IMG/VR virus record: IMGVR_UViG_3300044640_001993
Coordinates: 1 to 62,397 of that record
DNA: 62,397 bases
Strand: one strand, 5' to 3'
From: a virus
Taxonomy: Duplodnaviria; Caudoviricetes
Part shown: piece after piece, positions 1-58,173 of the stretch
How positions within the stretch are numbered: the stretch's first letter is position 1
Layout: every line of letters starts with the position of its first letter
Translations under genes and position numbers: made by a program
Notes under the pieces: generated by a model
Seen by the model: the letters and a program-made list of their open reading frames with translations, nothing else
What the model was told of the DNA's origin: nothing
The model's database searches: none

Positions 1-71
1 CTATAGCTGGGTTGGTTAGAGCTAACCCGTGCTATAGCAGAAGAAGAGTTGGACGGTTGTTGGTCAGCCAT
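1..71 (-). CDS. Partial CDS (5' end only, MADQQPSNSS...), hairpin-led cassette gene
   Basis: ATG at 71 with GGAGG RBS, preceded by the same hairpin and T-run as the neighbouring genes; runs off the window edge. Confidence 0.5.
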   Translation of the reverse strand, partial: MADQQPSNSSSAIARVSSNQPSY

Positions 72-106
72 GTGGTACCTCCTACGGTGTATTGGCTGTT
101 GGTCAT

Positions 107-145
107 AAAAAGTGACCCACAACGAACAGTTCGTTGTGGGTCACT
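107..145 (-). promoter_or_regulatory. Cassette hairpin H1 (17-bp inverted repeat) plus T-run
   Basis: AGTGACCCACAACGAAC-A-GTTCGTTGTGGGTCACT next to an A5 run. Confidence 0.7.
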
Positions 146-157
146 AGGAGTTATAGC

Positions 158-718
158 TTATAGATTCTTGTAATACCTATTGTTAGGCTTTAAAAAGCTG
201 TCATGCTTTCTTAATACCTCTTCTAGCTCTTCTATTGGTTGACCTGTCCCCCAAGTCTTCCAGTAAGAAGCAATATAATCTCCAAACCTGTTTGGTTTTG
301 GGGATATTCTTACAGCAAAGCTCTTCCTCTTTTCACAGAAGTATTGATAGAGCTTATCTACCTTCAGGAGGTCAAGAATAGCTATATCTTCTCCTACGAC
401 ATCTACCTTCTTGGATATAAGGAAGGCGTGAGCTCCACCAGAGGGGGTCTTGTACCCTACCCAGAATTGGTCAGGATGTGCAGCCACCCATCTTTTCATA
501 ATTTCATCTACCTCTTGGATAGAGGCAACGGTGTGGTGGTCATCTACCACACCGTTATGTGCAACATCCCAGTCGCACATTAACAAGTGCTTCATGTTCA
601 TAAAGCGTACTCCTTTCTCAATTCTGAAGCTTACGTCAGCTTCAAACGAGAAATTCAACTCTTCCAAGTTCAAGGACTTGGAAAAAGAAGAAGCAGCAAC
701 AGAAAAGTGATTAGCCAT
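158..718 (-). CDS. Prim-Pol/AEP-like domain protein
   Basis: hhhCDWD followed by YKTPSGGAHAF resembles the DxD and TxSGGxH motifs of bifunctional primase-polymerase N-terminal domains; AAGGAG RBS. Confidence 0.55.
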   Translation of the reverse strand: MANHFSVAASSFSKSLNLEELNFSFEADVSFRIEKGVRFMNMKHLLMCDWDVAHNGVVDDHHTVASIQEVDEIMKRWVAAHPDQFWVGYKTPSGGAHAFLISKKVDVVGEDIAILDLLKVDKLYQYFCEKRKSFAVRISPKPNRFGDYIASYWKTWGTGQPIEELEEVLRKHDSFLKPNNRYYKNL

Positions 719-753
719 GATAAAGTCTCCTTAAAGACAAAACGTTCACAAAG

Positions 754-780
754 AAAAACCCCACTCAATTGAGTGGGGTT
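754..780 (-). promoter_or_regulatory. Cassette hairpin H2 plus T-run
   Basis: Perfect palindrome AACCCCACTCAATTGAGTGGGGTT. Confidence 0.7.
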
Positions 781-803
781 AGTTAGGTAGCTTATAGACC
801 AAA

Positions 804-1559
804 CTACCAATTGTATTTTTCTATCTTGTAATCATCTGCTCTCAAGGCTGGAGGCATGAACACCCCTTTACCATTGGCGTTCAGACAGACCAATCTGCCA
901 TTAACTATGATTAAACACTCTGGACAATCCCAATGCCTCCGTGGGTCAATGCCAGGAAGCAGGGCACTAATTCTGGGATGGAGTTTGAATCCTTCTCCTT
1001 TCTTCTCAAAGTGAACCTCTGCATATTGCAGAGAGCTTTTAATTTGCATTAGTCGCCAGCCGCCTTGCCATTTAATAGCAATATCGCTGGCTAATCCTAC
1101 GTCCATTACAGACTTAGGAGTGGCCATAATAGGGTCGTAACCCAACTGCTTGAGCATAGTAAAGACTTTGTGCACAGTCATTACTCCAAAGAGTAATAGC
1201 CTTCTGGAGTGAGTAAACTCTCCCAGTGGGTACTCCACTGAGTTAACGAGATTCATTGTCTGGTTATCCACAACTAAAAGTTGTGCGGGTGTGGGCTTTA
1301 AATCTTCTTTCTTGATTGGTTTAGGTACTATCACTGGTTTAGAGACAGTAGTTGCCACCGCTCCACCAGTAACTTCTATACCTATAAATCTTGCAGCGTC
1401 GGAGGGACGCATACTAAACTCACGCAAAAGCTGACTTGCAGTGAGCTTACAGTAGCCAGACCCACAAGGGCACTTCCAGCTTTTTGCAAGTCTATCGGTT
1501 TTTCCGTATACTTTATCTGCGTAGCTTAATGCGTGGGCACAGATTGTTTTAGTAGCCAT
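804..1559 (-). CDS. Hypothetical protein, possible PD-(D/E)XK-like nuclease with Cys-rich N-terminus
   Basis: ATG at 1559 follows AAGGAG (track start 1583 is TTG); D...SDI...MQIKS motif; CAH and CPCGSGYC. Confidence 0.5.
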   Translation of the reverse strand: MATKTICAHALSYADKVYGKTDRLAKSWKCPCGSGYCKLTASQLLREFSMRPSDAARFIGIEVTGGAVATTVSKPVIVPKPIKKEDLKPTPAQLLVVDNQTMNLVNSVEYPLGEFTHSRRLLLFGVMTVHKVFTMLKQLGYDPIMATPKSVMDVGLASDIAIKWQGGWRLMQIKSSLQYAEVHFEKKGEGFKLHPRISALLPGIDPRRHWDCPECLIIVNGRLVCLNANGKGVFMPPALRADDYKIEKYNW

Positions 1560-1595
1560 TTGTCGAAGTCTCCTTAAAGACAAAAAAGTTTCTAT

Positions 1596-1629
1596 AAAAA
1601 TATCCCTCTACGAACAAATCGTGAGGATT
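1596..1629 (-). promoter_or_regulatory. Cassette hairpin H3 (imperfect) plus T-run
   Basis: ATCCCTCTACGAACAAATCGTGAGGAT next to A5. Confidence 0.5.
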
Positions 1630-1631
1630 GA

Positions 1632-1948
1632 ATTTGGGAAGCGGCTGTACCCTTGCGGCTGTACGTATCCGGGGTTCAGCGACGAGCGCGAACACCCACT
1701 TTTTGAGTAAGCCCAGGCAGAACCTAGAACCTTATTAGGGCACTGCTTACTCCAACGGGCTATTTAACTGCGGCTGTACCGCAGCAGGCATCCCTACCCT
1801 GGACAAGTAGTTGAGCATTATGCCTGCAATACTAGAGCCCCTGACACGCAGGGCAACCTCAAGTCGCCTAAGCAACGAGAAGTCAGCGCACAGCTATCCC
1901 GTGATAGCCGCGTACTCTAGTAAAGCAGGACATAAAGCCACTACCTAC
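1632..1948 (-). ncRNA. Candidate structured non-coding RNA (~300 nt)
   Basis: GC-rich; the ATG after H4 gives only 16 codons; several long-range complementary segments; GTACAGCCGC three times; bounded by cassette hairpins. Confidence 0.5.
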
Positions 1949-1950
1949 AG

Positions 1951-1975
1951 AAAAAACCCCTCGTAATGAGGGGTT
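1951..1975 (-). promoter_or_regulatory. Cassette hairpin H4 plus T-run
   Basis: AACCCCTCGTAATGAGGGGTT next to an A-run. Confidence 0.7.
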
Positions 1976-1988
1976 AAATTAAACTAGA

Positions 1989-2534
<546 letters not shown>

Positions 2535-2565
2535 GACATAAAGCCCCTCACGGCTATAAATAAAC

Positions 2566-2597
2566 AAAAAATCCCCTTAGCGTCTGCTAAGGGGATT
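2566..2597 (-). promoter_or_regulatory. Cassette hairpin H5 plus T-run
   Basis: AATCCCCTTAGCGTCTGCTAAGGGGATT. Confidence 0.7.
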
Positions 2598-2599
2598 AA

Positions 2600-2875
2600 T
2601 TATTTGCTGATATTTTGTGAAGCCCACGAGTTTGTAAGCTTCTGTATACCTCCTATAAGGTATACAACACCAGCTAATTCGCTAGAATGTGGGTTTTCCT
2701 CAACCCAGCGGTGAAGCTTTGTTAGTGCTTCACGTATATGACTAAAACGAGTAGTGCAAGAAAAGAGTAATTCTTCTTCTTGCATAGATAAGGTGTTATC
2801 CCAATCTATGTCAACCCATTTACTAGCTTGTTTTAGCAAGCTAGAAGCCTGTATCATAAATCTTCTATTGTTCAT
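2600..2875 (-). CDS. Hypothetical protein
   Basis: 91 aa, strong RBS TAAGGAGG, cassette architecture. Confidence 0.75.
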   Translation of the reverse strand: MNNRRFMIQASSLLKQASKWVDIDWDNTLSMQEEELLFSCTTRFSHIREALTKLHRWVEENPHSSELAGVVYLIGGIQKLTNSWASQNISK

Positions 2876-2905
2876 AAAACCTCCTTACAGGTTTAATAAA
2901 ATCAG

Positions 2906-2931
2906 AAAAAACCCCACTCAGTTGAGTGGGG
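2906..2931 (-). promoter_or_regulatory. Cassette hairpin H6 plus T-run
   Basis: CCCCACTCAGTTGAGTGGGG, nearly identical to H2 and H8. Confidence 0.7.
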
Positions 2932-2942
2932 AATTTAGTTAT

Positions 2943-3566
2943 CTATGGTTGTTGGTTTTGGGAAACATTAAACAGAGAAGGCAAGTTACCTGTTACTACA
3001 GGAGGAGTAGTTGGTGCTGGTGCTGGTTGAACTAAAAGAGTACCGCAAGCATCACAGTGGGTGTTAGCTTCATGATTAGGCGTGTTGCAGGCTGGGCACA
3101 CAATGAAGTTAGAAGATGCAGAAGTATTCCGAACTCTTGGAGCTGTGGGAATATAGCGAGGTACTGGTGCACCACCTAGCTTTGCCATCTTTTTATCCAT
3201 ACGCTCTTGCTTGAGCTTCCGTGCCATATCCAGAGCTGAGAGAGCCGCTGACTCTCTATGTTCTCTAGCTTGCTGAATGGAGTCCTCAATAATCTCCAGT
3301 CTGTCTTCACAGGAGCTCAAAGCTCTATAAGTTGTGACTAAGGCTTGTTCAGCTTGTCTCATCCTTATAGCACCCTCAGTTTCTTCTTTCAGTACAGCCA
3401 GGCGGGCTTTCTCTATGACTTTTTTCTCAGCTAGTTCACACTTACTACTTTCTAACTCCGTTAGAACCTCTGCCTCTTGAGCAGAAATAACGGGAGCGGG
3501 AGCGGAAGCAGTAGGAGCAGCAGCAGGAGAAGAGAACAAAGAAGCAAACTTTTTGAAAATAGACAT
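2943..3566 (-). CDS. Coiled-coil protein with C-terminal zinc ribbon
   Basis: ATG at 3566 after TAAGGAG; CPAC-x10-CDAC motif. Confidence 0.75.
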   Translation of the reverse strand: MSIFKKFASLFSSPAAAPTASAPAPVISAQEAEVLTELESSKCELAEKKVIEKARLAVLKEETEGAIRMRQAEQALVTTYRALSSCEDRLEIIEDSIQQAREHRESAALSALDMARKLKQERMDKKMAKLGGAPVPRYIPTAPRVRNTSASSNFIVCPACNTPNHEANTHCDACGTLLVQPAPAPTTPPVVTGNLPSLFNVSQNQQP

Positions 3567-3600
3567 AATAAAAGGCTCCTTACAGCCAATAAATAAACAG

Positions 3601-3624
3601 AAAAATCCCCTCATAATGAGGGGA
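3601..3624 (-). promoter_or_regulatory. Cassette hairpin H7 plus T-run
   Basis: TCCCCTCATAATGAGGGGA, nearly identical to H4. Confidence 0.7.
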
Positions 3625-3630
3625 ATCTAA

Positions 3631-3930
3631 CTAAAAGCGTTTGATTCTATAGCACTCAGCTAGATGCTGAACACTATCAATTAACTCAAAGACTTCCTGA
3701 CTTTCATCTTTTGCGTAGACCAACACCAACCAGTGCTGTAGGTCTACTAGCCTATCTCTGTAGGCTATAGTTAGCTGTAGCAACTCAGAGTCAGAACACT
3801 CAGAGAGATTGGTGACTAAGGAAAGATTAGGAAAGCCCAATCCTTCTGCTTCTACAAGCAGGCTATTAGACCTGCTTATGAACTTCTTCAAGAACCCCAC
3901 TGGGTTAGATTCAAATGATTTACGTGACAT
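3631..3930 (-). CDS. Hypothetical protein
   Basis: 99 aa, TAAGGAG RBS, cassette architecture. Confidence 0.75.
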   Translation of the reverse strand: MSRKSFESNPVGFLKKFISRSNSLLVEAEGLGFPNLSLVTNLSECSDSELLQLTIAYRDRLVDLQHWLVLVYAKDESQEVFELIDSVQHLAECYRIKRF

Positions 3931-3963
3931 AATACAAGCTCCTTACAGGCTGTATAAAAACAG

Positions 3964-3994
3964 AAAAATCCCCACTCAACTGAGTGGGGATTTT
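3964..3994 (-). promoter_or_regulatory. Cassette hairpin H8 plus T-run
   Basis: AAAATCCCCACTCAACTGAGTGGGGATTTT. Confidence 0.7.
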
Positions 3995-3996
3995 CT

Positions 3997-4335
3997 CTAG
4001 TTAAAGAGCAGCTCTACAGGGAGCTGTAATCGCTCCTTCCAGGAGAGCTGCTGGTCAGCTCTCCTGTATTTTAACTCTTCACCATAAATGCTCTTCCAGC
4101 CGTCTGGAAGAGCATTTATGTAAGCGAGTTTGTATTCTTCCAACACTTCCTCAAAGGGAAGTGAGGTCGCCTTAGCGACCGTTTCTTCAATTATTTCAAT
4201 GGTGATTCGCTCACCATTTTCTATGGAGAGTTGCGCCTCTCCATTATCTCTACCGGCGTTTTCAAGACGAGCTGCTAAATCAAGCGCATCTTCTAACTCT
4301 TGCCAGGAGTCAAATTCATCCTTATACAATGTCAT
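3997..4335 (-). CDS. Hypothetical acidic protein (first gene of the cassette array)
   Basis: 112 aa, Glu/Asp-rich, TAAGGAGG RBS. Confidence 0.75.
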   Translation of the reverse strand: MTLYKDEFDSWQELEDALDLAARLENAGRDNGEAQLSIENGERITIEIIEETVAKATSLPFEEVLEEYKLAYINALPDGWKSIYGEELKYRRADQQLSWKERLQLPVELLFN

Positions 4336-4366
4336 TATTAAAGCCTCCTTACAGATGTATATTTAC

Positions 4367-4401
4367 AAAAAATCCCTCAACGAACAGTTCGTTGAGGGAT
4401 T
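4367..4401 (-). promoter_or_regulatory. Cassette hairpin H9 plus T-run
   Basis: AATCCCTCAACGAAC-A-GTTCGTTGAGGGATT; no minus-strand gene lies immediately upstream. Confidence 0.7.
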
Positions 4402-4473
4402 GATCTCCTACACAAAACAAGCCAGGAATTGTTCGTTTTCAGAACCCCGGCTTACCCTGTGACAGCATATTCC

Positions 4474-4753
4474 ATCCACCTCTACCCGCTATCAATTTTT
4501 CCCCCAGCTCCGCTATCAATTTTTCCTCCAGCTCCGCCATCAAGCAGTTAACATATTGCTCTACCTGCTATCAATTTTTCCTCCAGCTTCGCAAACTGTA
4601 CAGCTTACATCCACCTCTATCAGCTACTAAGCTGCCGACTATCTTCTTTTATTTCTTTTTATATTTTTCTTTATTTCTTTTTTCTTATTTTTTAATTACT
4701 TAATCGCACTTCTAAAAAATCCGCGCATATATTTTCCCCCAGCTTCGCAAAAC
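4474..4753. repeat. Iteron-like direct repeats with T-rich tract (possible origin or control region)
   Basis: GCTATCAATTTTTCCYCCAGCT at 4488, 4512 and 4567, partial copy at ~4731; ATCCACCTCTA twice; T/C-rich tract 4643-4695; lies at the strand switch. Confidence 0.65.
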
Positions 4754-4801: not shown

Positions 4802-5644
4802 ATGCAATACGCTCCTATTACACCTATTTCTACACCTACTCTGAGAGATTCATTTCTTGGAGCTAGAACAGTACAGGCTTCGATTTCTCAGTTATCTTTT
4901 CTTGAAGAGCAAGAGTTAGTTGTTGCGAGTAACTTAGCTGCGCCGGACTCTACTCTAATAACTTATAGACGTACTCACAACTTTTACCGATTAGCGGAAC
5001 CGCCGTTAAAGCTACGGCATAATGGGGCTACAGTTGACCAAGAGTTATTTGTATATAATTTCTCCTTTGTACAAGATAGCCCTGCGCCGAAGGCTCCACA
5101 GGTGTTATATCCACCTGCTGACCCTTTTACTTATGATTGGGGTGGGGAGTCTTACTATCAAAGAGACACTACCGTTTATATCTTTCCTAGTTTACCTGTA
5201 CCTACTAGAAGTAATTTGGTATGGGATGGTAGATACTCTATTTGTATTAATGCCGCGGGAGCGGCTGTGGATAGTTCTTCAAAGATACCAAAACTGCAAG
5301 GACTGGCGCGAACGGCTATAGAGAATCCAGGAATGCCGAAGTTTAGTGTATGGCTATCTAATCTTGGACAAACTAGAAAACCAGAGAACTTCTCAGCCGA
5401 TTTAAACATAAATGAGTATAATGTTTATCTGCAAAGATTCTTAGATGAACATTATAACGCTTTGAGCGTTCCTCCAGTCCCTATTGCTTTTACAGACTTA
5501 GACGTTATCCGTAACGGGGTGACTGCACCAACAAATGATGTTGAAGCCACGCCAATTACAACTACAATATTAGCCGCACTGCTTGAAGGAGATTACTTTG
5601 TTAAGTGGGTGGCGTATAGTTCAACAGCTTTAGGGGGTTCTTGA
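4802..5644 (+). CDS. Hypothetical protein, probably virion structural
   Basis: Long ORF, likely ATG at 4802; stop overlaps the PAAR start (TGATG). Confidence 0.7.
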   Translation: MQYAPITPISTPTLRDSFLGARTVQASISQLSFLEEQELVVASNLAAPDSTLITYRRTHNFYRLAEPPLKLRHNGATVDQELFVYNFSFVQDSPAPKAPQVLYPPADPFTYDWGGESYYQRDTTVYIFPSLPVPTRSNLVWDGRYSICINAAGAAVDSSSKIPKLQGLARTAIENPGMPKFSVWLSNLGQTRKPENFSADLNINEYNVYLQRFLDEHYNALSVPPVPIAFTDLDVIRNGVTAPTNDVEATPITTTILAALLEGDYFVKWVAYSSTALGGS

Positions 5645-5946
5645 TGCAGCAAGCTTTATTAGGAGACCGCATTACTTGTCCTAATACTCCAATATGTCCT
5701 CATCCTAAACGTGGACCATACACTATCATTGGAGTTATCAAAAGCTGTAAAGTGAGTACAGTTTTAGTTAGTGGTAGACCACCAGCTACTGTAGGAGACT
5801 TAGCTTTCTGCGGCGGACCATCCTTTCTAACTACAGGGTGTCTAACGGTATTAATTCAAAATATGCCCGCACACCGGGTAGGCGATCGTAATCATTGTAC
5901 AGGTCACACCTTGGGATCAGGCGCACCAACAGTATTAGTAGGTTAA
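5644..5946 (+). CDS. PAAR-domain baseplate spike tip protein
   Basis: Three PAAR-like repeats (ALLGD, PPATVGD, PAHRVGD) with Cys/His ligands; ends GAPTVLVG. Confidence 0.9.
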   Translation: MQQALLGDRITCPNTPICPHPKRGPYTIIGVIKSCKVSTVLVSGRPPATVGDLAFCGGPSFLTTGCLTVLIQNMPAHRVGDRNHCTGHTLGSGAPTVLVG

Positions 5947-8602: not shown

Positions 8603-9120
8603 ATAGCCTCACTAACTGGCAGAACTAATCTAATTCTTTCTAAAGCATTCTCTTCCTTAGTTTTAGGAGGAAAGTGCGCTAGATAAACTAGGGTTAAGTT
8701 ACTGAGCGTTGTGGTGACTAGTCCACTAGCTGTAATTGCGGTTGCTGATTCAAAGAGACTGAGCGATCGCCAACTAGGCTGAGTAAGCTGGTTGTGCGTT
8801 AATACACCTCCAAAACATACTTCTTGGCAGTTGTTACTTTGTAAACTTGTTAAAGTATTAGGCAGCTTTTTATAACCAATGCCTGCTAAATTAAAGTCTG
8901 TGCTAGTTGTCGCTCGGACAACACCGCTTATTTCTGTTACTAGAATATAACCCATTAATTCTTGAACAGTAGTCTCTACCCCTGACACAGTTGGAGGAGA
9001 GATATCAAGACTCCAAGGAGAGAACCGCCCTAATCCTATTAGATAAAAGTTTGGTTTTGCTGCTAAAGACAATATCTTTTTATATCTATTAGCTTGTATA
9101 AATGAACTACTACTTATCAT
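8599..9120 (-). CDS. Putative baseplate wedge protein (T4 gp8-like motif)
   Basis: FYLIGLGRFSPW..D..PP motif; start overlaps the stop of the giant gene. Confidence 0.5.
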   Translation of the reverse strand: MISSSSFIQANRYKKILSLAAKPNFYLIGLGRFSPWSLDISPPTVSGVETTVQELMGYILVTEISGVVRATTSTDFNLAGIGYKKLPNTLTSLQSNNCQEVCFGGVLTHNQLTQPSWRSLSLFESATAITASGLVTTTLSNLTLVYLAHFPPKTKEENALERIRLVLPVSEAI

Positions 9121-12100
9121 CACGTCTCCAAATATGTAGGAATTTCATCACCTTCGTAGGTTGTTAAGGTTACGCCTGTTAGTTCATCTAACTCCATAGC
9201 AGTAAGGAAACCGCTATTATTATTGTAATCTGAAGAAGAAGCCATTGTAGCTCCGTCTTCTTCGTCAAAGACATCAACAGAGGCTTGAGCGATAATCTGC
9301 TCACTAAAGCGTTCAGCGGCTTCTCTAGTTGATTGTTTAATACCTTCTATTATTCTGTCTGCCATATCTTGTTCTGTTACACCTTCTCCTGGTAGTCCGG
9401 CCTTTCTATTAGTGAGAAGGCCTGCTATACCCATACCTACTACCCCACCAACAACTTCTCCTGTTAATCTTCCTAAAGGTGTTGCAGCAAAGCCTCCGCT
9501 TCTAGTTCCAATGGTATCTACTACTTTGTTAGATATTACAGAACTAGCGTTGAAGATAGATTCAAAAGCTATTCCTGTAAGTAAGGATTCTGTTGAACCT
9601 CCGCCCATAGTTAAACTATTTCTGATTCTGGCTGTCCTTAACCGCTGGGCTGTTTTAGCTAGTTCCCCCTCGGAGGTAGGGTCAGCTACTGCACTAGAAG
9701 ATAGATAAGACTGGGCTGTGTTACTTAATAGTTCTATTGCTTGTTCTGAAGCTGAAGCTCTATTTTGCATCAAGGCAAACAAGGCTGGTACTGCTAATAC
9801 ACTAATAGCTTCAGATATAGAGTGCGATCGCCTGGACTCTCTACTTATTCTGTTAACTTCAAGGCTTGTAGCTCTTTTTATAGTAGCTGTGAGATTCCTG
9901 TTTAATTCGTTTTGGATGTCTTGTACGGTTTTAAAATGGTCTTCAGGACGAAGATTATTTGAGTTTGATTTAGCTGCGTCCATTTGTGCTTGTAGTCTAT
10001 CTATAGCAGCATCGTATTGTACGTTTAGTTTTTCTCTGACATCTTCTGCTTGACTAAGATTTATATTGTTAGCAGCTTGCTCGGCTACTAAGCTTGTGTA
10101 CTCTTGGTTAAGCTTACTCATTGTATAAGTAAAAGCACTTTGGTTAGCAGCTTGCTCTGCTGCGGAAGTGTTTAACTCTAGACCTTTAATAGCTTCAAGC
10201 CCAATTCTGTATTCTCTTTCTCCTGGTTTACCTTCTACTTCTGACTTGCTAAATAGTAAAGCTTCAGCCTCTTCAGATAGGTACTTACCATTATCTCCTA
10301 AAGCACCTATATCTGCCTTTAAAGCGTTCTTATCAATACTAGGATTTGTGAAAACTGTATACTCCATTGCTAAATTTAAGTTTGTATACTCATTTGTTCT
10401 CACATATCTAGAGGCTCTTGCTTCAATTGCAGCTATATCTGGGTTATTATCTCCATCAGGATTGTAGCCTATAGAAGTGTTTTGCAGTCCTAACATACTA
10501 AAGAAGCCTCTATAAGCCGCCTCGGCAGGTCTTTTATCTGGTTGATTTTCAATACCTGGATTTGTAGTTTTAACAGCTTCTGCGGCTAAACCAGCTATTT
10601 CTGGTAAAGCTTGAGCATAAAAGCCCATCCATATATTAGGGTCAATCTTTCCAGCAGCTAATTGTTGAGCAAAAGCTGTAGAGTATAAACTTAAGTTTTG
10701 TTCCAAGTTAGAAGGTAAACTACCCTCTCTCATTTCACCTATAGCACTGTGTAGATTCTTCAGTTCATTAATACTATCCTTTAACCGCTGTTGGTCGTTC
10801 TGTAGGGTTTTGTTTATACTTGCTCTTAAACCAGCTTCAAATATCTCAAAGTCGTCATTTAACCCAGAAGTTGCTTTAGCGATCGCCTCTTGCATACCTT
10901 CTTGTTCTATTCTGTATTCTTTTAGATAACCCTCTTCTAAAGTTTTTATAGCAGAAGTTTCATTTAAACCTTCAAGAAGTTCTGCTTTTCTTCTATCAAC
11001 TAGTGAATCAATAGCCCCTCTTTCAAACTCATCATCTTTGTTGTAAGTACCGACTCGCTTTACTCCGTACAGGTCTAGTAAAGCCTGTCCTGTTCTAGCA
11101 AACTCTACTCTGTTTTGTATTTCTAAAGAGTTAATAAAGATATACTCGCTTTGGAAAGCACTAGTTAGGTCAGTGATAAAGTTAGAGATAAAGTCATCTG
11201 CTGATTGACCTGCATACTTTTCTCTTGTCTGTGCAGCTTTTAAAATATCTTTAAAGACGCTTTGCTCCATCATTGCAGAGCTATCTTCAAAGTTGCCAGA
11301 AACATACTCTGTTATCAGCTTTAATGCGGCAAACGCTTTAGCCTGACGTGCGTAAACAGGGGTTTCTTTTTCTCCTAAATAGATATCTAGGTCGTTACCA
11401 ACTTTTTCACCTAAAAATCTAGTAAGAATGCTTTCTCTATTATCTTTTATAGTTCTAGAATCTCCGGTAAGACTATTAAGGATGTTGGTCAATCCTTTTA
11501 TATTGTCTTGTCCTTCTGGCAATTGAATCCCGTAGCTTGGTAACTCGTCTGCAGGGAGGAAGAAGTCATCAACCACTTCCAACATTATGGTTTTGGAAGT
11601 ATTAGTCCCTTTCTTTGATTCTTTAGGTTTAATAGCAGCGTCTCTCAAGAACTGCTGTGTAGTAATGACAAATCTCATTGCTACTTCTAGCTGGCGGTTT
11701 CCTTCATCTAGCCTTAAGTTGGTAGATAAAGTTTGACCACTGTTGAAGTAACTATTTCTTCTTTGCTCTAGTTGGTTTATAAGGCTTTGTTGTGCCTGGT
11801 CTGTAGTAGACAACTGAGCTTTTCTTTGATTTATTTCTCTAGTTAAACCAGCAGCCATAGCCATTCTGTAGGATGCTCCTTCATCACCCCGCATAGCTCG
11901 CTGGGCTGTTATTTCTCCCATTTTGATAGCTACTAATGGTACTACAGTGTTATAGGTACTTCCTAATAACCCTGTACCAGAAGCTCCAAGGATAGATTGA
12001 ATTTCATTTATACCCTGTGCGTCTAATATAGAACCTGTAGCAGAAGCAAGACGTTTATCACTATTTGCCATACTAGCGTTAAAGCTGGCAACGTTTGCTT

Positions 12101-15100
12101 GTTGTAGAATAATGGCGTTGATTACATCCTCTGGTGTATTAAGATTATCTTTGTTTTCTATGTCTTGGTAGTAATAGTCAAACTCGCTTGTGGCTGCCGC
12201 TAGGAGTTTTCTACTTTCTTCATCTCTTGTGTACCCAACCATGCCAGTTACTTTAAACTCGCCATTTTGTTTAGTCAGCTGCAGCTTGGATAACACATCA
12301 TTAGTTAAAACTCCAACTGCATCTGTGGCGTGTTTGGTATTACCATAGATGCCATCTAGAGTATCTCTAAATTGTTTAACTAAGGACTGAAGAGATTCGT
12401 CAGGTAGAATCCCGCCTTCTCCCATCATTTCACGAGGTATCGCTGTGTAAGTAGAAGTGTAGGCGCGTAGCCCTTTATTTGCTCTCTGCTTGGCTTCTAT
12501 TTTTATCTTTCTATGCTCGTTTAGTAGTTCATTTTTGTGTTTTATCATTAAGGATAGTTCTTCATCGGCAGCTTTAACTTCTGCCTTACTTATGGCATTT
12601 AGTTTGTCTGTAGAAAGAGAGCTATCATGATGAAGATTAGATTTATCTTTTGAAAGCTTGTCTACTGCAGCTTGTTGTTGTTGAATGCGTCTGGTAACGT
12701 TAGCTAATTGAGTCATTGCTCCTTGGAAGGAGTCACCGTCGTAGTCTCCCAACTCTGTATAGTGCATACCTAAAGCGGAAACAAGCATTAGAGTGGCGGA
12801 TTCTCTTTTAGCAAGGCGGACTAGTGTATCTGTTTCTCTTGCTCTTTGGTCTACTGTTCCTACCCCAACTATATTTAATAGAGCCGTCGCACTTTCAGAA
12901 GGAAGAGCCGCACCATAAGGACCACCTTGTCTTGCTTCTGTTGACGATGAGCTGTAAAGTTTTTCTATTTCTTCTAGCCTGGTTTTAGTTTTTGCTTTTA
13001 CTGTCTCATTAAAATCAGCAAAAAGTGGTAAGTCAAGATAACTAGAAGGAAATAATTCTTTAACTGGTTCTACACTATTAATCTGTCTTGAACTAATTAA
13101 CCTTGAGGTGTAGTCCATAAAAGAGTCAACACTAGCTACCCTATACCCATCTATAAGAGGGTTTACATGACTTCTAGTTATATACTCTGTTTCTGGAAGC
13201 TCTTGTCCATAAGTTTGTGAGTAGTAAGTCTGTCTTTGTTGGTTTAGTCTATCAACTAACTTATCTAGTAAAAAAGGAAGCTGACTTTCTTTTAAAGCTA
13301 CACTCTGTTTACTAGCTTCAAGCTTGGCTTCATTTTCTAGAATTATTTTTTCTTTTTCTTCTATTTTTGTGCGTAGATTTTTCTGTTCATCTTCAATAGT
13401 TTTAGCTACTCGCATTTTAAAAACATTAATGTCTGACTTATCAATAGGGCTACTTGCTTTTTTTCTTATTCTTACTTTTTCATTTGCATTGTCATCACTC
13501 TCGTCATACTCTCTACCATATTCTACATACTCGTAGTCTAAACCCATCCTTTTTAATAAACGGTTAGAGACGTAACCTTTTTTAAATGTTTTTCCCTCTT
13601 CAGCAATTCCATCTTCATCTTTTTTATCTCTTAATCTAAAGGTTTCTAAATCTTTATACTCAGCTTCAGTTAAACTACTATTTTGGGTAGCATTGTCTAC
13701 AAGACTTTGCATTTTGTTTCTTGTAGCGTCTAAGTCTTTATATCTTTGGATTAGGTTTGCAAGTTGACGATGTTGAAGACCTGTAAAGAGTGTTACACTT
13801 CTTACTTCATTTGAATCAGGAATATTTGTTCTATAAGAAACTTGTTTAGTAGTTGTACCAACTTGACCTTCTAAATAATCTATTGAGGCATTAAGTTTCA
13901 CTATGCTTTTAGAAACGCCAAGTAAGGCTGCTCTAGACGTTTTCAGTTCAGCTTTTACGTTTGCGTTCTGTCCTCTTTGAGTGACTTCCGTAAATCTAGA
14001 GCCAAAAGCTACTTCATCCTCTGCTAGTAAGAGACTAGACATAGCGATCGCACTCATACCAGAAAGCTTTAACCTATCTGTGGCAGCTTGTCTAATAGTC
14101 TCTTGGTTGTTAAGCAACTCACCTGTGGTTTCCACAGATTCTCTCATTAAGAACTCTAACCTACGATACTGTGCTAACTCATAATCATCTAGTTCTGTAG
14201 TCTCAGACCTATTACTTGCCCCACTTAATCTTTCTAATAAACTGTAACTATTAGTCAATTGGTCAGACAAAGCTACTTGAGTGGTCAAGGCGGCGTGGCT
14301 TTCACCTTGAAAGACTAAAGATATCTTCTGCATTAAGTCTAGACCTAGCAGCAAGCCCTGGTTAGGTGAAGAAGAAGTAGTAGGTGCATAGCTGACAGTA
14401 TGCTTGCCGCTCTCACTCATACCGTGTCCTATCAAAGCTGGTAGAACTAATCTTTTTGTTTTAGAGATAGTCTCATACAAGTTTTTAGCCTGCTCTATAG
14501 TTGGGTCTTTACCGTGTTTACTATCTTTACTATCTTTTGATTTTTGAGTGTGAGATACGCTCCTAAGAACTTCCATTCCATACTGTAAATACTCTGTACC
14601 TGATTCAGTATTCTGAGAGGCAGTAATTCTTCTGTTTATATCAGCTTGGTAGTGTTCATAAACTCCGCTATCTCTCAATAGGTCTTCTGTGAGGTACTTA
14701 GCAATATCTAGTTTTTGATTAGGTTGGTCTGTTAGTAGTAAAGGATTAAGAGCCGCCACACTTGTGGTTAACTTTGTGAAAAAGCTTTCGTAGTAAGCAA
14801 TAGGGGCTATAAGAGTTTGCTTGTTCTTTAAAGTTTCTAAACTTCTTTCAATAATTATTTTTGGTAACTCTGTTTCTATAAACTGGCTTCTATACGGGTT
14901 TTGGGAACTCATTCTTGAATCTTTCCCATAAGCTGTACTAAACTCTTTGAAAATAGAAACCACTTCCTTCTGGATAGCTGTTTTCTGTACACCATCCATT
15001 TGAACTTCTTGGAGTATGCGTCTTTCTATCTGTCTCCTTCTGTAATTAACTCCATCCTCTGCGTCTTGAGAAGATGGCATTACTATACCTCCAGCTAGTT

Positions 15101-18100
15101 GTCTAACAAGACCCATCTTTTCTACAAGTCTCTTTGCATCCTTACCGTCTGGGTTATATATATAAGCCAGTACAGCATCTTTAGCCAAAGGACTAGTAAA
15201 GCCTCTCTCTCCGGCTACAACAGTGGGTAAAGTCTTCTCAGCTACTCTACTAAAATTACTAAGGAAGTTAGTAGCAAAGCGCATTGATTTACTAATACCA
15301 ACCTGCTCATCTAGACTAGCTAGATTAGTTACTTTCAAACCATATAAAGTAGAAGCACGGTAGGGGTCAGGTAGCTGACCTTCCATTAGTCCTCCCAGCA
15401 GTAGTACAGCTTGTTGGATGCTGAGAACGTCTTGCTTTTCTTGTAAAGTATCTGTATAAAGACCAAGTTGCGCCTTAGATAACTCTAAAGCGTAATGGCC
15501 CTCCATTTTAGTCATGTTTTGCATCCCAACTGCTACGGCAATCTTGCTTGGTAGTTTTTCAATACCAAACTCCATGAAGCGGTTCAAGCGCAGCATAGCA
15601 TTAACTTGAGCTAAACCAAACTCAAGCTGCTTTTCTAGCATTTCTTTATTTTGTCCTGTAGCATTATTAATGTCTTCGGGTCTTGGTAGATGAACGTTCA
15701 AACCTGATGCCACTCTTCTTACAGAAGCTATCATAGCTAGTCTAGTGCGGGGGTCGGTGTCAGCAGTTTCTCCTAAATATCTTTTTCTGTTCTCTGACCC
15801 CATAAAGTAGGCAGGATTTACCTCGCTTATAGAAGCACCGTTAAGTCTTTGATTTGTGTCTATATCTCCTAACAAATCCTGTCCTGCTTTAATAAAGTAA
15901 GCTAATACACTAGCTGACCGACTATCAAAAGAATCATTAAAGATATAACGAGACTGATCAAACTCTACGCCTAATGCTCGGTCTGTTCTGGTTCTGACTT
16001 CTCCAAAGAGGCTTAAAGCTCTAGTCTTTAAGCGTTCTCTAGCTTGATTTGCTTCTGTACCAGTTCCTAAAGCAAGAGAGACTGTTTTTACAAGAGCTTG
16101 ACTAACACTTAGAGTGTTATCATTTAGAAACTCTGGAAGAGCTAAAGAAGTTAATTCACCAAATATCTGGAAAGTGGGTTTAGCTGCATCAGTAATACTA
16201 TTGGTTCTTCCTCTGACTGGTAAAGCTTTACCCTGTGAACTTCCAGGTTTTAATAGAGCTAAAGCTGCTTGGCTTTTACCAGAAGTTTTTAAATGCTCGC
16301 CGAGCAATCTTGAGATAGTTTCATTATCATCTACTTTTTCTTTTAGCATCATTAATGCTAAACCTTCGGCTACGGCTGCCCCACCTTCATCTCCGCCAAC
16401 AAACTTAAGAAAACTGCTGTCGTGCCTATCTTCTATAAGCATCAGACCTTGCTCAAAGTTAAAGCCTTTAATCTGAGAAGGGGTAAGGATAGCGTAGATA
16501 CTTTGATCTCTTAATCTTTCTGGTAACAATTCTGTGTTTGTACCTTTAGATTTTTCTAAAGCATCAAACAGGTCTCCTGACAACATAAGGTCTGGTCCTT
16601 TGCTAGTGTCTGTACCAGGTCTAAGACCCGACATGGTGTCTCTTCTGGTGGAAGTATCTAACTCCAAAGTGATAGTGGAAGAACCAGTTTGAGATATTCT
16701 AGGGTCTTCATGTAGTACAGTTACCCCTCTATAAACTCTTTGGCTGACAGCAGGTAACTTGAACTTGAGAAGTTGTGTGGCCTTCTGTTGCCCACCTAAA
16801 CTGTCATATTCATAAAGTCCTTTAATTGTAAAGTAGCCTTTGGACTCTTCTAGCTGCCCAATCATCTTCTTACTAGTTAGTCTTTCTTCAGGAGAAGACC
16901 CAACAGCCGCTGACTGTACACCTCTTCTAAAGTAGAACTGTCCCTTAGAAGATTTAAACTGGACAGTTTCAAATCTAAGAGATATTGCATCTTCTAGATT
17001 CTTTCTCTTACCAGCGTCAAGACTTTGCATTTTCTCAACAAAGTTTAATTTATCATCACCCTCTTGAGGGTTTAGCTGGTCTAAGACAGTTTTTTCTAGA
17101 AGCGATCGCAGCCCTGTGTCTTCTATAAGTGTATCTAAGGCTAAGAACGTGACTCCTTTAGTTAACTTTTGTCTAACTTGCTGCTCAAAGGATACGTTAC
17201 CTTGAAGTCTGGTAGCATCCAAAGTCATAGTTGTTTTGTGTAACAAGGTGTACTCAGGTCTGTTACCTGTTTCGTCACGATAGTCGGCATTAACATAAGC
17301 AAAGTCAGACATTGTGGCTATACCCATGCTCTGCAATACTCTTTTAGGTGATGTACCGCCAAGAAAGCCGCGCACTAAGCTCATTGAGTCGCCGTGTATA
17401 TTGCGTTTTATATAGTTAAGAACTGTGTCTGGATTGTTTTTATTTTCTTCTAATAACTTCTGTAGATACTTAAATTGATGTTCAGGTATAGAAGTCATCA
17501 TGCTGCCTGCCAGCATATTCTCTAGCTGTAAAGGGTCTGCAGTAGTGCTAAAAACGCCCAGAGTGTCTGCATACCTACCAAAGTCTTTAGAAGCAGCTTC
17601 TACTGGTCTACCGCTTTGTAAGTTCTTTAAACGTTGAGAGATTTGTTCAGTTACGCGGTAAGGAAAGTAGAATAGTGAACTACTGCTACTACCGCGCACG
17701 GTTAACAGTTTGAATACTTCCTCTTCTTGTTCCTTGGCTCTTTTAGCAGCTTGTTCATCACTTAAGCCTGCTTTTCTTAAAGAAGCTAGAACTTGAGCAA
17801 CATAGTCTTCTCTTCTGAGGATGCCAAGCTGCCGCATAGTAGAGAGCATAGATTCTGTATCTCTGATAGAAGCCGCGCCCCCTTCTGCTTTATAGATACC
17901 ACCTTGATTCTTATATAGGTCACGTTCAGTAAATCTAATACTATCCGCGATCGCTCTGATGTAAGAACCTCCCAATGACTCTCCATGACGTAAAGCATGG
18001 GGGCTTAATAGAAAGCCTAGAGTGCTTTGAGACTCTGCTAAGTTGTAGAGATCATCGTTAATCCCAAACACTGGTGTTTTGTAAAGTGCTTGACCAAAAG

Positions 18101-24316: not shown

Positions 24317-24985
24317 ATGAATGAGAACCAACTACTAGAGGCTATGATTTCAGCTCCTATCACGGCTGTTACTCCTAATCAAGTAGAACCTATTGTTGCT
24401 AGAGGGTATGGTAGTCAAGAGTTACTTTTATCTCAACCAAGAGCTATCCAACCTCTAAAGACTTTACAGCCAACAGAGCAAATGACGAACAGTTCGTTGC
24501 CTGTGCAGCCTCAAAGTCAAGTTTTTATGGACTCTTCTTATGGTTATGTTTCTGGCAGCAGACACGAGGAGTCTGAAAAGGTAATACCAAATTATAGATT
24601 AGCTACCTCTTGTGCTAACTGCGCCTTTTCAACCTATGATCCTGTTCGGCGAGAAGCTACCTGCCAGAAGTGGAAGGTATGTGTCACGCCTTTCTACGTT
24701 TGTGACTTTCATCTAAACCCTAGTACATTGGCAGAGACACAAGAAAACTTCTCTGAGACGGCTGTTACAGAATCTACAGAGAATGAGGTTGTTTCAGATG
24801 TAGATGTAGTAGATACCTCTTTAGCAACTAACTCTAAATATGCTGACATCGAGTTGTACGCAGAGGCTTTGACCTTGACCCCTTCTTATTTTGATATTGA
24901 AGGATTAGCCGAGATTTACTCTGAGAAAAAGTACCAGCAGTTGTTTAAAGCTAAACACGGAGCTGCTTCTCCTTATCTTTCTTAA
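24317..24985 (+). CDS. Hypothetical head-module protein with a four-Cys motif
   Basis: CANC-x12-CQKW...VCDFH. Confidence 0.65.
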   Translation: MNENQLLEAMISAPITAVTPNQVEPIVARGYGSQELLLSQPRAIQPLKTLQPTEQMTNSSLPVQPQSQVFMDSSYGYVSGSRHEESEKVIPNYRLATSCANCAFSTYDPVRREATCQKWKVCVTPFYVCDFHLNPSTLAETQENFSETAVTESTENEVVSDVDVVDTSLATNSKYADIELYAEALTLTPSYFDIEGLAEIYSEKKYQQLFKAKHGAASPYLS

Positions 24986-36979: not shown

Positions 36980-37123
36980 CGAACTGTTCGTCGCCAGACT
37001 GTTTTTTCTCTTTTCTTTTTTTTACTAAATACTCCAACTTTTCCATATATTCATCCTCACAGTTAAGTTGGGTTTAGTTGAAGTATTACATTTACATCCT
37101 TTAAAACTTATAGACCAACTTTT

Positions 37124-57888: not shown

Positions 57889-57949
57889 ATAATCAAAATA
57901 CTTCTAGTTTCTTGGAGGTATTATAAGGGGCGTTAGTGACAAACATCAG

Positions 57950-58021: not shown

Positions 58022-58024
58022 TAA

Positions 58025-58096: not shown

Positions 58097-58173
58097 TTGT
58101 TGTATTGATACATTGTTAGTACGCCTGAACATAGCTAACCCAGTGTATCACTGGCTTCTCCTGTTAGGGAGAA

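Follow-up and report, generated by a model that had tools for sequence, protein, structure and literature searches.

A putative non-coding RNA element with leader-like boxes in the small-gene array of an uncultivated freshwater cyanophage

The element and its slot

The locus described here lies in the window (the whole 62,397-nt stretch of DNA analysed), which comes from an uncultivated freshwater cyanophage with a capsid protein that is distant kin of those in Ma-LMM01-like Microcystis phages and one Microcoleus phage. It fills a slot of its own in an array of small orphan genes separated by hairpins; these genes are probably early, a timing that we infer from the gene array alone. A terminator-like site follows every gene of this array (17 in 4.8 kb versus 4.3 expected), and the one that ends gene 1989–2534 marks the 5′ limit of the slot (Table 1). 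On the minus strand, the element extends from ∼1950, in the U-run of this upstream terminator, to a hairpin and U-run at 1594–1626, which reads as a degenerate copy of the ACGAAC-N-GUUCGU hairpin found genome-wide and probably forms the 3′ end or terminator of the element. The coordinates of the original prediction, 1632–1948, fall short of this full extent, 1594–1950.

The slot is a GC-rich island, as had been noted, with a GC content of 0.53–0.535 over 1601–1900 versus 0.39–0.455 in the flanks. It has no coding capacity. The longest overlapping ORFs comprise 51, 48, 42 and 36 aa, in agreement with the earlier view that no credible ORF is present; none of the four matches Pfam at E ≤ 1, and comparison with 534 stop-to-stop frames (≥40 aa, from the window and the early region of phage record G001, described below) returned only frames overlapping the element itself. 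Neither the frame comparison nor Pfam revealed a remnant of a decayed protein gene, which the original prediction had named among the findings that would overturn it. No sigma-70-like promoter was found on the minus strand at 1950–2100; an RNA from this slot would have to come from transcription passing through the upstream terminator or from a promoter that escaped recognition.

Table 1. Features of the element and of the related head-of-array block, in window coordinates
Feature	Position	Strand	Detail and basis
Upstream-gene terminator-like hairpin and U-run	1949–1975 (stem 1955–1975)	−	Scan: 8 pairs, then T-run; ends gene 1989–2534
Cassette-like 5′ end	1928–1950	−	Degenerate leader CUGUAGGUAGUGGC, then UUUAUGUCC; read from sequence
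Domain A, predicted four-way junction	1818–1935	−	Outer helix UUAUG.CCUGC/GCAGGCAUAA; ACUAGAG/CUCUAGU helix (7–9 bp) around three hairpins
Box GUGCGCUGAC	1882–1891	−	Identical in the L024 homologue
Hairpin CCCUG-CGUGU-CAGGG	1839–1853	−	Covariation in the X17 variant contig
Hairpin CUGCGG-UACAG-CCGCAG	1768–1784	−	Fold; contains third box copy (1770–1779)
Domain C, GAGUAAGC/GCUUACUC helix enclosing a pair of small hairpins	1705–1752	−	Fold
Unstructured 3′ tail	1627–1681	−	9-mer CUGAACCCCGG 1669–1677; box 1 1655–1664; box 2 1641–1650; CCCAAA 1633–1638
3′ hairpin CCUCACGA-UUUGU-UCGUAGAGG and AUAUUUUUAU	1594–1626	−	Fold and motif scan; L024 counterpart at 1596–1625
Head-of-array structured block, outside the element	4365–4475	−	Conserved with G001; z −5.94

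Predicted fold and a natural variant

The minus strand of 1600–1985 folds at −159.3 kcal/mol (z −6.15), with none of 100 shuffles as good, and the plus strand of the same region gives z −5.43. The segment 1815–1937 alone attains −61.8 kcal/mol (z −6.77, 0/200 shuffles as good), with a minimum-free-energy structure that coincides with the centroid and has a frequency of 0.23; 1696–1800 is not significant by itself (z −1.37), and 1585–1700 exhibits no fold signal (z −0.97). In these predictions, the fold signal of the region stems from the four-way-junction domain at 1818–1935. Among the pairings proposed originally, ACUAGAG/CUCUAGU, enclosing GCGGCUAUC-ACGG-GAUAGCUGU and CCCUG-CGUGU-CAGGG, is present in the minimum-free-energy fold, as are CUGCGG-UACAG-CCGCAG and GAGUAAGC/GCUUACUC; the GCAGGCAU/AUGCCUGC pairing is possible, but the fold instead pairs GCAGGCAU with the 5′ AUG.CCUGC. 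On the sequences compared, the folded body (four-way junction and two hairpin domains) appears specific to this phage lineage, and it would mainly lend the RNA stability or serve as its scaffold.

Three sources were available for comparison, namely this phage, one variant contig from the lake metagenome run X17 and one distant homologue. The diverged X17 contig (502 nt, depth 5.6) spans 1811–2307, and the changes listed for it leave out 6 of its 31 differences together with changes within ∼30 nt of the contig end. Over 1842–1948 it carries six listed substitutions and no indel: three fall in loops, two form a compensatory pair and one converts G-C to G-U. None of these six listed changes breaks a predicted pair, an outcome equalled by 1.2% of 100 000 random six-substitution sets, and the next 95 nt (1949–2043) carry 19 listed substitutions and three deletions. 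The compensatory pair consists of 1842 T>C and 1850 A>G, which together replace a minus-strand A-U by G-C, and changes 1844 and 1846 lie in the loop of hairpin 1839–1853. The change 1852 G>A converts G-C to G-U on the minus strand whereas the plus strand would give C.A; as it pairs on the minus strand only, the variation points to that strand. Compensatory change across homologues amounts to one pair and one G-C to G-U conversion in a single variant contig, and in the alignment with the distant homologue (two sequences) both partners are altered at three pairs, within a stretch that aligns poorly. The homologue collection suggested earlier as a check thus yielded one distant homologue and one variant, too few sequences for statistical covariation.

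A distant homologue, a conserved tail and a leader box

The one distant homologue, L024, occupies the syntenic slot in the 197-kb IMG/VR phage record G001, where it is preceded by a Pro-Ala-rich gene with terminator and followed by a hairpin and U-run. The gene downstream of the element is a 251-aa orphan (804–1559) here and encodes a Bro-N/anti-repressor-like protein in G001. Zinc-ribbon proteins are encoded in the window at 2943–3566 and 804–1559. Only the ends of the element are shared, chiefly the 3′ tail with CUGAACCCCGG, two GUACAGCCGC boxes 4 nt apart, CCCAAA, the hairpin and the U-run. L024 is without domain A and its version folds no better than shuffles (z −0.57), which suggests that the folded body and the conserved tail may be separate things. 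At the 5′ end, UUUAUGUCC is common to the element and L024, and GGCUUUAUGUC also stands ahead of the start of gene 1989–2534. The AUG at 1931–1933 starts a 16-codon frame with its stop inside the GUGCGCUGA box; the counterpart frame in L024 has seven codons, with the first two and last two as here by our reading of two sequences only. A 10-mer common to two regions of this size, such as the box at 1882–1891, has a chance probability of ∼0.06 by our rough estimate.

The tail aligns with L024 at 77% over 87 nt (blastn, E 3.9e-11; nhmmer, E 2.3e-7) and is the second-best alignment of the two early regions, in which flanking proteins are 27–46% identical. The three top-scoring blastn alignments of these regions each start in a non-coding block, the third extending into a gene start. 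With z −0.97 here and z +1.23 in L024, the tail exhibits no fold signal in either phage, which fits an accessible binding platform. A conserved peptide across the tail was considered and rejected: by our reading, any frame that runs through the tail in one phage is either interrupted or has no initiation codon in its counterpart, which leaves the two phages with no such frame in common, and the box falls into two different reading frames.

The threefold repetition of GUACAGCCGC reported originally was recovered as three exact minus-strand copies of GTACAGCCGC, two in the tail and one in hairpin 1768–1784 (Table 1). At ≤1 mismatch, GTACAGCCGC occurs six times in the window versus 1.36 expected, and none of 100 shuffles reaches six. 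The repeats are 10 nt long with a 14-nt period, and only two copies stand in tandem. The box is also a leader box of neighbouring genes: in G001, the leaders of the neighbours carry UACAGCCGC directly upstream of the Shine-Dalgarno (SD) sequence. All six exact TACAGCCGC copies in G001 are on the gene strand and within 2.8 kb of the 197-kb record, three before an SD-like sequence, two in the element and one inside a giant gene; in the window, three of the five exact copies fall in the element. Leaders in the window itself have drifted (ACAGCCUGU among other forms), with the box exact as far as ACAGCC in one only, and the element boxes remain identical to those of G001. As the box is the G001 leader box, the tail resembles a pair of leaders that lack both ribosome site and gene. 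One empty slot of G001 holds the box and an SD-like sequence with no gene, which illustrates that leader remnants can persist without obvious function.

The head-of-array block aligns with G001 at 82.6% identity over 178 nt, including an uninterrupted run of 42 identical nt, and contains the only other copy of the tail 9-mer, as the complement CCGGGGUUC, followed by a perfect ACGAAC-N-GUUCGU hairpin. Each phage record has exactly two copies of GAACCCCGG, in opposite orientation and 2.77 kb (here) or 2.71 kb (G001) apart, and each copy lies ∼50 nt ahead of an ACGAAC-N-GTTCGT-type hairpin. The palindrome ACGAAC-N-GTTCGT is found in the window in five exact copies and in eight at ≤2 mismatches versus 1.05 expected, also inside genes; G001 has 11 exact copies and seven with one mismatch. 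RNA–RNA pairing of the tail with the head block was no better than in shuffles (fractions 0.29 and 0.34). Two distant phages share an unusual early-region grammar, with a post-gene hairpin and U-run, a genome-wide palindrome and a 42-nt invariant stretch in the head block. This common grammar also includes ribosome sites in the loops of small covarying hairpins.

Relatives of the element are rare. In viral contigs, three DNA patterns with an nhmmer screen matched 30, 17 and 5 stretches, of which only L024 was real. The strict pattern matched no stretch in metagenome or genome contigs; the looser one matched at least 118 and at least 120, respectively, and nhmmer of 292 loci gave no homologue among the matches listed. 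Neighbouring proteins, a two-protein alignment and a giant-protein alignment used as queries led to no new locus. Nine IMG/VR records with a related capsid protein contained neither the element nor the head block (0/9 each), although these records are 18–59% complete and uninformative on distribution. Among 50 697 phage records, blastn with the element matched two Vibrio phages alone, over 26 nt of terminator sequence, and neither the L024 version nor the 99-aa neighbour nor the head block had a match. Ma-LMM01 and the Microcoleus phage My-WqHQDG are without the element (best E 0.096 and 0.34) and without the palindrome. In a search for a host origin in 401 sampled cyanobacterial genomes, the element gave matches at E ≤ 0.01 of 22–52 nt in seven, five of which represent one apparently coding 23-nt stretch in small genomes, and the head block gave similarly short matches in eight; Rfam at 9 of 15 of these loci identified no family, and we treat the short matches as chance. 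An apparent joint from 1585 to 2907 in three runs was discarded as an artefact, the contig matching a repeated cassette boundary at window 700–790.

The Infernal/Rfam check proposed earlier gave no family reaching its gathering score at the element. With permissive filters (E ≤ 10), eight weak matches were obtained over 1400–2150, none of them within 1632–1948; a rimP leader match at 1921–2008 (E 5.7, 17 bits versus a cut-off of 47) is the only one touching the 5′ edge of the element, and the remaining ones fall on the terminator, on the upstream gene or at 1417–1492. The original failure to match tmRNA, RNase P, 6S or a group I intron is borne out, as none of these families appears in this range at E ≤ 10, and the family models for RNase P RNA, 6S RNA, group I/II introns and known self-cleaving ribozymes do not place the element among their members. 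ARAGORN detected no tmRNA in the whole window and Rfam no tmRNA family. Nine tRNAs were located by ARAGORN at 57949–58878. The earlier suggestion of a ribozyme finds no support, with no ribozyme or intron family even at E ≤ 10 and the folded domain missing from the only distant homologue. Several resemblances were dropped as weak matches: CUGAACCCCGG and CAGAACCCCGGCUUAC compared with the RNase P core, the box compared with the 16S 530 loop, and a tRNA-like form of the four-way junction, together with kissing loops as in phi29 pRNA, because the loops do not covary, and an NtcA site, because of wrong spacing.

Interpretation and comparison with known systems

The locus is probably a functional RNA element of the minus strand. 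With no ORF, no Rfam, tRNA or tmRNA match, strong fold z-scores, a structure-preserving variant and a syntenic homologue, its original description as an unassigned structured RNA in one cassette slot stands. The protein sponge suggested originally may draw an indirect argument from the presence of the motif in neighbouring-gene leaders of the related phage and from the conserved, unstructured state of the tail that bears it. We read it as a lineage-restricted phage non-coding RNA that combines a stable folded body with a single-stranded tail of pseudo-leaders devoid of an SD sequence. In the mechanism that we favour, the pseudo-leaders would compete, as a decoy, for a factor recognising the leader box, which may be a translational repressor, an activator or a processing nuclease, and this competition would tune or time expression of the gene array. 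In this scheme we infer the transcription of the element, the existence of the box-binding factor and the decoy action alike. The package of non-coding RNA element and decoy action is offered tentatively, at somewhat less than even confidence, and the decoy mechanism taken by itself is given a low probability. More doubtful is a version in which an RNA decoy on a nuclease-resistant folded body would time the early programme, titrating a leader factor of phage or host as the RNA accumulates, with the 9-nt head-block match perhaps adding a second contact that joins the two best-conserved non-coding parts of the early region. Such a putative leader-mimic RNA regulator of a phage operon is of a type that we do not know as described. 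If expressed, the element would provide a compact test case, with the box both in neighbouring leaders and as a gene-less tandem on an RNA; the family is small (two lineages and one variant) and, short of a new mechanism, of limited general importance.

Conservation of the tail in sequence and not in structure would also suit a DNA-level control region, in which protein-binding sites on double-stranded DNA set downstream transcription and the upstream folded domain is incidental or a separate RNA. The candidate sites are the two direct GTACAGCCGC repeats, GAACCCCGG as the inverted twin of the head-block site and a degenerate ACGAAC-N-GTTCGT palindrome. The paired GAACCCCGG sites, in opposite orientation at similar spacing in both phages and each before a palindrome-type hairpin, the occurrence of the palindrome as a genome-wide DNA motif (inside genes too) and the shuffle-level pairing of tail and head block are all consistent with this reading. 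However, the box recurs in leaders beside ribosome sites and always on the gene strand (6/6 in G001), which an RNA signal fits better; a repeat every 14 bp does not correspond to an integral number of DNA helical turns; the two phages have different genes downstream; and domain A, the covariation and the minus-strand-specific G-U change are left unexplained. We therefore hold DNA-level control to be possible with low probability. The slot, with boxes that are leader boxes, could instead be the functionless leftover of one or more protein-gene cassettes, composed of leader, start codon and leader remnants. Its 5′ end is like a cassette start, CUGUAGGUAG resembles CUGUAAGGAG leaders, GGCUUUAUGUC is shared with gene 1989–2534, G001 has a vestigial slot with only the box and an SD-like sequence, and the element is rare. 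Decay is nevertheless improbable, given that the two phages are more alike in the tail than in any coding sequence nearby, that the element boxes stayed unchanged while real leaders diverged, that domain A reaches z −6.77 with all listed variant changes structure-neutral, and that no protein remnant was detected.

A structured RNA with a hairpin and U-run, followed ∼35 nt on by a ribosome site and gene, has the layout of an attenuator, and read-through control would be useful in an array with a terminator-like site after every gene. The element may accordingly be viewed as a cis-acting leader of gene 804–1559, either an attenuator or riboswitch (terminator 1594–1626) or an antitermination element for the array hairpins. 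We give this reading little credence, as the two phages have unrelated genes behind the element, an unusual situation for a riboswitch or attenuator, inspection by eye revealed no alternative pairing of the antiterminator kind, the element is mid-array and not at the array head, and the folded part is not conserved in G001. Far less probable is a known class that was missed (ribozyme, group I/II intron remnant, omega-RNA, tmRNA, RNase P, 6S, or retron/reverse-transcriptase template). Another mobile-element RNA, a HEARO/omega-RNA, lies elsewhere in the window, and a four-way junction is a shape that some ribozymes use; against this, there is no Rfam gathering-score match and no ARAGORN tmRNA or tRNA at the element, no similarity to the HEARO copy and no reverse transcriptase (PF00078) in either of the two records.

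Phage regulatory RNAs have come, to our knowledge, mostly from a few model phages, with almost nothing for freshwater cyanophages. In the partial text of the transcriptome paper on Ma-LMM01, the nearest studied relative, the words ‘non-coding’ and ‘ncRNA’ are absent. The window's HEARO/omega-RNA (RF02033, 61560–61854, 101.8 bits) adjoins only a 50-aa stub of the IscB N-terminus. Like it, the element is a ∼300-nt structured RNA in the same phage record with no full-length partner gene; unlike it, the element has no Rfam match and no adjoining nuclease remnant, as the RF02033 model gives no match there, the small ORFs are without a Pfam match, and the element matches only itself in the record. 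For a retron or reverse-transcriptase template RNA, PF00078 was searched in both phage records (G000, 40% complete; G001, 94%) and found in neither, with control genomes positive. Antitoxin RNAs of type III toxin–antitoxin systems (ToxI-like) consist of tandem ∼34–45-nt repeats with a terminator and a toxin endoribonuclease gene conserved alongside, whereas the element has 10-nt repeats in two tandem copies and downstream genes that differ and match no toxin family. Of the traits of a riboswitch or attenuator, the terminator-like hairpin is present, but the genes that follow are not related to each other and the homologue has no folded domain.

Lambda nut and HK022 put are phage cis-acting transcription RNAs, and the element resembles them as a small structured RNA in a terminator-rich early operon, with a hairpin of 5-bp stem and 5-nt loop. 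The loop of hairpin 1839–1853 is changed at two of five positions in the X17 variant and is thus not sequence-specific as in boxB, and unlike nut and put the element is mid-operon, much larger and without boxA-like conservation. Like GOLLD, ROOL and phi29 pRNA, which belong to the large structured RNAs of phages and metagenomes, the element is a putative phage-borne structured non-coding RNA of unassigned or unusual function that came from sequence analysis alone; it is much smaller than GOLLD and ROOL, has no Rfam match, and only one of the two lineages known for it has the folded domain. Sponge RNAs such as CsrB and RsmZ are non-coding RNAs that repeat, outside genes, the motif that a factor meets in mRNA leaders. 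The element differs in having two to three copies of a 10-nt box and not many GGA hairpins, a box beside the SD sequence and not in it, a phage origin and a large folded domain. As in CsrB and RsmZ, the element repeats a leader motif outside any gene, with a motif-bearing part that is predicted to be accessible and a probable terminator at its end.

The phage and its small-gene array

We read the window (62,397 bases; completeness estimate 40%) as a putative large freshwater cyanophage, because metagenome runs from lake water carry near-identical DNA (24 runs listed, with at least half of the sampled words found in 8), its major head protein shares 28-29% identity with those of Microcoleus phage My-WqHQDG and Ma-LMM01-like Microcystis phages, and portal, protease, baseplate and tail-fibre families are detected. 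A run of small genes, here called the array, occupies positions 1-4400, on the minus strand throughout, with no family assignment apart from weak zinc-ribbon hints. Each array gene is followed by a G+C-rich hairpin and U-run, and a scan of the array region gave 17 terminator-like sites in 4.8 kb versus 4.3 expected; from this layout we infer that the genes are 'early'. The Shine-Dalgarno sequence of each small gene falls, as read from the sequence, within the loop of a mini-hairpin (3-6 bp), its arms varying between genes with complementarity kept (AAACCU/AGGUUU, AGCC/GGCU, GUCU/AGAC, GGC/GCC, GCCGC/GCGGC).

At the array head, 4-5 iteron-like repeats (GAGCUGGRGGAAAAAUUGAUAGC) precede 42 nt (GGUAAGCCGGGGUUCUGAAAACGAACAAUUCCUGGCUUGUUUU) identical in the window and in G001, a related phage record, with a long stem-loop fold (z -5.94). 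No other DNA in the early region is as well conserved as this stretch, a possible promoter/operator, origin or second RNA element. The window is strongly enriched in the palindrome ACGAAC-N-GTTCGT (5 exact copies; 8 at ≤2 mismatches versus 1.05 expected), and G001 has 18 sites (11 exact and 7 with one mismatch). Ahead of the first array gene and of the giant-like gene, the palindrome is at the centre of long hairpins that have covarying outer arms and a U-run; a degenerate copy is the core of a similar hairpin at the end of the element RNA, and other copies lie inside genes. It may be a site for a protein or a transcription signal specific to the phage. Further features include a 3931-aa ORF (29% identity to the giant ORF of G001, with neither a Pfam nor a PHROG match), a second gene that aligns at the DNA level with the start of the G001 giant gene, whose protein contains a DFGDFDGDG stretch, and a HEARO/omega-RNA (RF02033; 101.8 bits versus a gathering score of 83) with only a 50-aa ORF behind it on that strand. 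Residues 1-22 of this ORF match the beginning of the RRXRR domain (IscB N-terminus; 20.5 bits, under the cut-off of 25), and the pair has the appearance of an omega-RNA retained in a phage next to a truncated IscB.

Coordinates of the features in the window and, where indicated, in loci of the related phage
Feature	Position	Detail
Element slot	between terminator of gene 1989-2534 and ribosome site of gene 804-1559	minus strand
Best blastn block 1	head of array	82.6% over 178 nt
Best blastn block 2	element tail	77% over 87 nt, E 3.9e-11
Best blastn block 3	hairpin and leader ahead of giant gene	alignment continues into gene start
Shine-Dalgarno mini-hairpins	upstream of starts 3930, 3566, 2875, 2534, 1559, 718 (-); L024 about 340-365, 695-727	
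ACGAAC-N-GTTCGT copies	122-134, 4380-4392, 24485-24497, 36979-36991, 56578-56590	
Array-head repeats and 42-nt stretch	4365-4640 (-); L063 6270-6580	
Mini-ORF	1883-1933 (-); L024 1432-1455	16 codons, MSCFTRVRGYHGIAVR; 7 codons, MSNRTVR
Empty slot	L024 243-329	
3931-aa ORF	9120-20915 (-); giant ORF of G001 at L024 2986-13155	
Second gene	1-72 (-)	start at 72; runs off window
HEARO/omega-RNA	61560-61854 (-)	
50-aa ORF	61390-61542 (-)	
omega-RNA and truncated IscB (apparent)	61390-61854	
tRNA cluster	57949-58878 (-)	nine by ARAGORN (Pro, Asn, Asp, Ser x2, Arg, Glu, Trp, Tyr); eight by Rfam
PAAR-motif protein	5641-5946 (+)	E 1.9e-11; adjoins divergent intergenic region
FGE-sulfatase-domain ORF	62139-62396 (-)	E 6.5e-19; continues past right window end

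A folded, non-coding element and its natural variant

The original observation at 1632-1948 is confirmed, the element reaching beyond these coordinates, from about 1950 at one side to a hairpin and U-run (1594-1626) at the other. It is indeed a GC-rich island (G+C 0.53 versus 0.39-0.455 in the flanks) and, as was also claimed, holds no credible ORF, the longest in the region being 51 aa. The whole region folds at -159.3 kcal/mol (z -6.15), and 1815-1937 accounts for almost the entire signal, giving alone -61.8 kcal/mol (z -6.77) with an MFE identical to the centroid. Here the predicted fold is a four-way junction (domain A), in which an outer helix and the ACUAGAG/CUCUAGU helix surround three hairpins. 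The helices originally proposed all recur in the minus-strand fold with the exception of GCAGGCAU/AUGCCUGC, which competes with the preferred pairing of GCAGGCAU with 5' AUG.CCUGC.

Contigs from four runs were aligned to window 800-3600, and one from the lake metagenome run X17 (502 nt, depth 5.6, spanning 1811-2307) is a diverged relative, with 31 substitutions and 13 gap letters. Six listed changes fall within the element: 1842 T>C and 1850 A>G, which are partners in the minus-strand fold and turn an A-U into a G-C pair; 1852 G>A, which pairs with 1840 and gives G-C to G-U on the minus strand, or a C.A mismatch if the plus strand is read; and 1844, 1846 and 1901, in hairpin loops. All six leave the predicted pairs intact, as do 1.2% of 100,000 random sets of six substitutions placed in 1842-1948, and the variant's fold is no less stable than that of the reference (-65.8 versus -64.1 kcal/mol); the adjoining 1949-2043 has 19 listed substitutions and 3 deletions. 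This variation, from one contig with near-end changes unlisted, 6 of the 31 differences not displayed and the structure predicted from the reference, lends modest but real support to a minus-strand RNA structure.

That the element is a known RNA class overlooked by the searches is unlikely. At gathering scores, Rfam returned eight tRNAs and one HEARO RNA in the whole window, all elsewhere; with permissive filters (E≤10), it returned eight weak matches in 1400-2150 and zero inside 1632-1948, which stays unassigned as predicted, and a rimP leader match (1921-2008) was the only one touching the element's 5' edge. ARAGORN found no tmRNA in the window, and a reverse transcriptase is absent from the window record and from the 94%-complete G001. 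A decayed protein gene, the outcome named as speaking against the RNA, was looked for and not seen: the element's four small ORFs had zero Pfam matches at E≤1, and tblastn of 534 frames of at least 40 aa (window and G001 early region) gave matches only from frames overlapping the element itself. A mini-ORF at the element's 5' end and its G001 counterpart both start with AUG UCC and end, in frame, with GUG CGC UGA (two sequences, own reading); no good ribosome site is present. This may be fortuitous (1 in 3 for the frame) or mark a translated leader.

A conserved tail that carries leader boxes

A two-box pattern matched 30 viral stretches, of which nhmmer retained one, locus L024 of G001 (196,877 bases, 94% complete). 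Its position is that of the window element, downstream of a Pro-Ala-rich coiled-coil gene and terminator (46% identity to the product of 1989-2534 over aligned columns) and upstream of a hairpin with a U-run. Only the ends are common: the 5' side shares UUUAUGUCC and GUGCGCUGAC, and the 3' tail reads CUGAACCCCGG-N3-GUACAGCCGC-N4-GUACAGCCGC-N2-CCCAAA, followed by an ACGA...GUUCGU-type hairpin. The middle is about 85 nt in L024 versus about 190 nt in the window, and the L024 version folds no better than shuffles (z -0.57). By blastn between the early regions of both phages, the top three alignments by score each started in a non-coding block. The tail is under constraint, because its DNA is 77% identical while the neighbouring proteins are only 27-46% identical between the phages. 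This constraint acts on the nucleotide sequence itself, because neither phage shows a fold signal in the tail (z -0.97 in the window, +1.23 in L024), all frames open across it in one phage are closed or without a start codon in the other, and the box is read in two different frames.

The triple motif that had been noticed is real: GUACAGCCGC has three exact copies in the element, and the window has 6 matches at ≤1 mismatch versus 1.36 expected; of the five exact TACAGCCGC copies in the window, three lie in the element. Exact TACAGCCGC has six copies in G001, all of them on the gene strand and confined to 2.8 kb of a record 197 kb long; three have a terminator hairpin on one side and an SD-like sequence on the other (UUACAGCCGCUUAGGAGG, UUACAGCCGCUUAGAGCGG, CUACAGCCGCGUAGGAAG), two are in the element and one is within the giant gene, and a seventh, with a single mismatch, lies ahead of the ribosome site of the giant gene. 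Because G001 copies stand in leaders and the window leaders are related, if drifted (AUACAGCCUGUAAGGAGC upstream of gene 3631-3930, further variants elsewhere), the motif is, by its placement, a leader box. The tail looks like two tandem leaders without a ribosome site or gene, the slot's 5' end resembles a cassette start (CUGUAGGUAG...GGCUUUAUGUCC), and together these features point to an element derived from cassette architecture. G001 also has an empty slot between two terminator hairpins, with a leader box and SD-like sequence (CUACAGCCGCGUAGGAAG) and without an ORF, which looks like a vestigial cassette.

Proposed function and novelty

We favour, at low confidence, a decoy mechanism; the identity, conservation and accessibility of the motif are observed. 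The element would be transcribed together with the array, its stable folded body would protect the putative transcript, and the single-stranded tail would compete for a putative factor that reads the leader box, which may modulate translation, processing or stability of the array mRNAs. The 'sponge' originally suggested thereby takes concrete form, as the element RNA would show the same box as early mRNAs. Against this stand the lack of a sigma-70-like promoter just upstream of the element, the absence of the folded body from the sole distant homologue, and the empty slot of G001, since a box kept there without a gene implies that leader remnants can simply persist. A decayed cassette is a rival reading, as is a cis leader or antitermination element.

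The slot could also be a DNA-level control region with protein sites on DNA. GAACCCCGG occurs exactly twice per phage, in the tail and as an inverted copy in the head block, 2.77 kb apart in the window and 2.71 kb in G001, each about 50 nt ahead of an ACGAAC-N-GTTCGT-type hairpin, and this palindrome is found genome-wide, inside genes too; however, domain A and the strand bias of the boxes would be left unexplained. As an RNA-RNA contact, the GAACCCCGG pair gains no support from duplex energies.

Beyond L024 and the X17 variant, no homologue was found in 292 retrieved loci, in four further loci, in 50,697 phage records, or in Ma-LMM01 or My-WqHQDG, and 401 sampled cyanobacterial genomes gave short chance matches only; for the loose metagenome and genome scans, the negative holds among the matches listed. 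Nine capsid-related IMG/VR fragments carry no element, and they probably do not cover the early region, because the head-of-array block is missing too. For Ma-LMM01, the transcriptome paper (PMC5780444) describes sigma-70-like promoters in every gene class, and the terms 'non-coding' and 'ncRNA' do not occur in its text. We found no description of such an RNA in the literature. The family is small and its expression putative, and we rate the element as a candidate new RNA family among phage-encoded non-coding RNAs.
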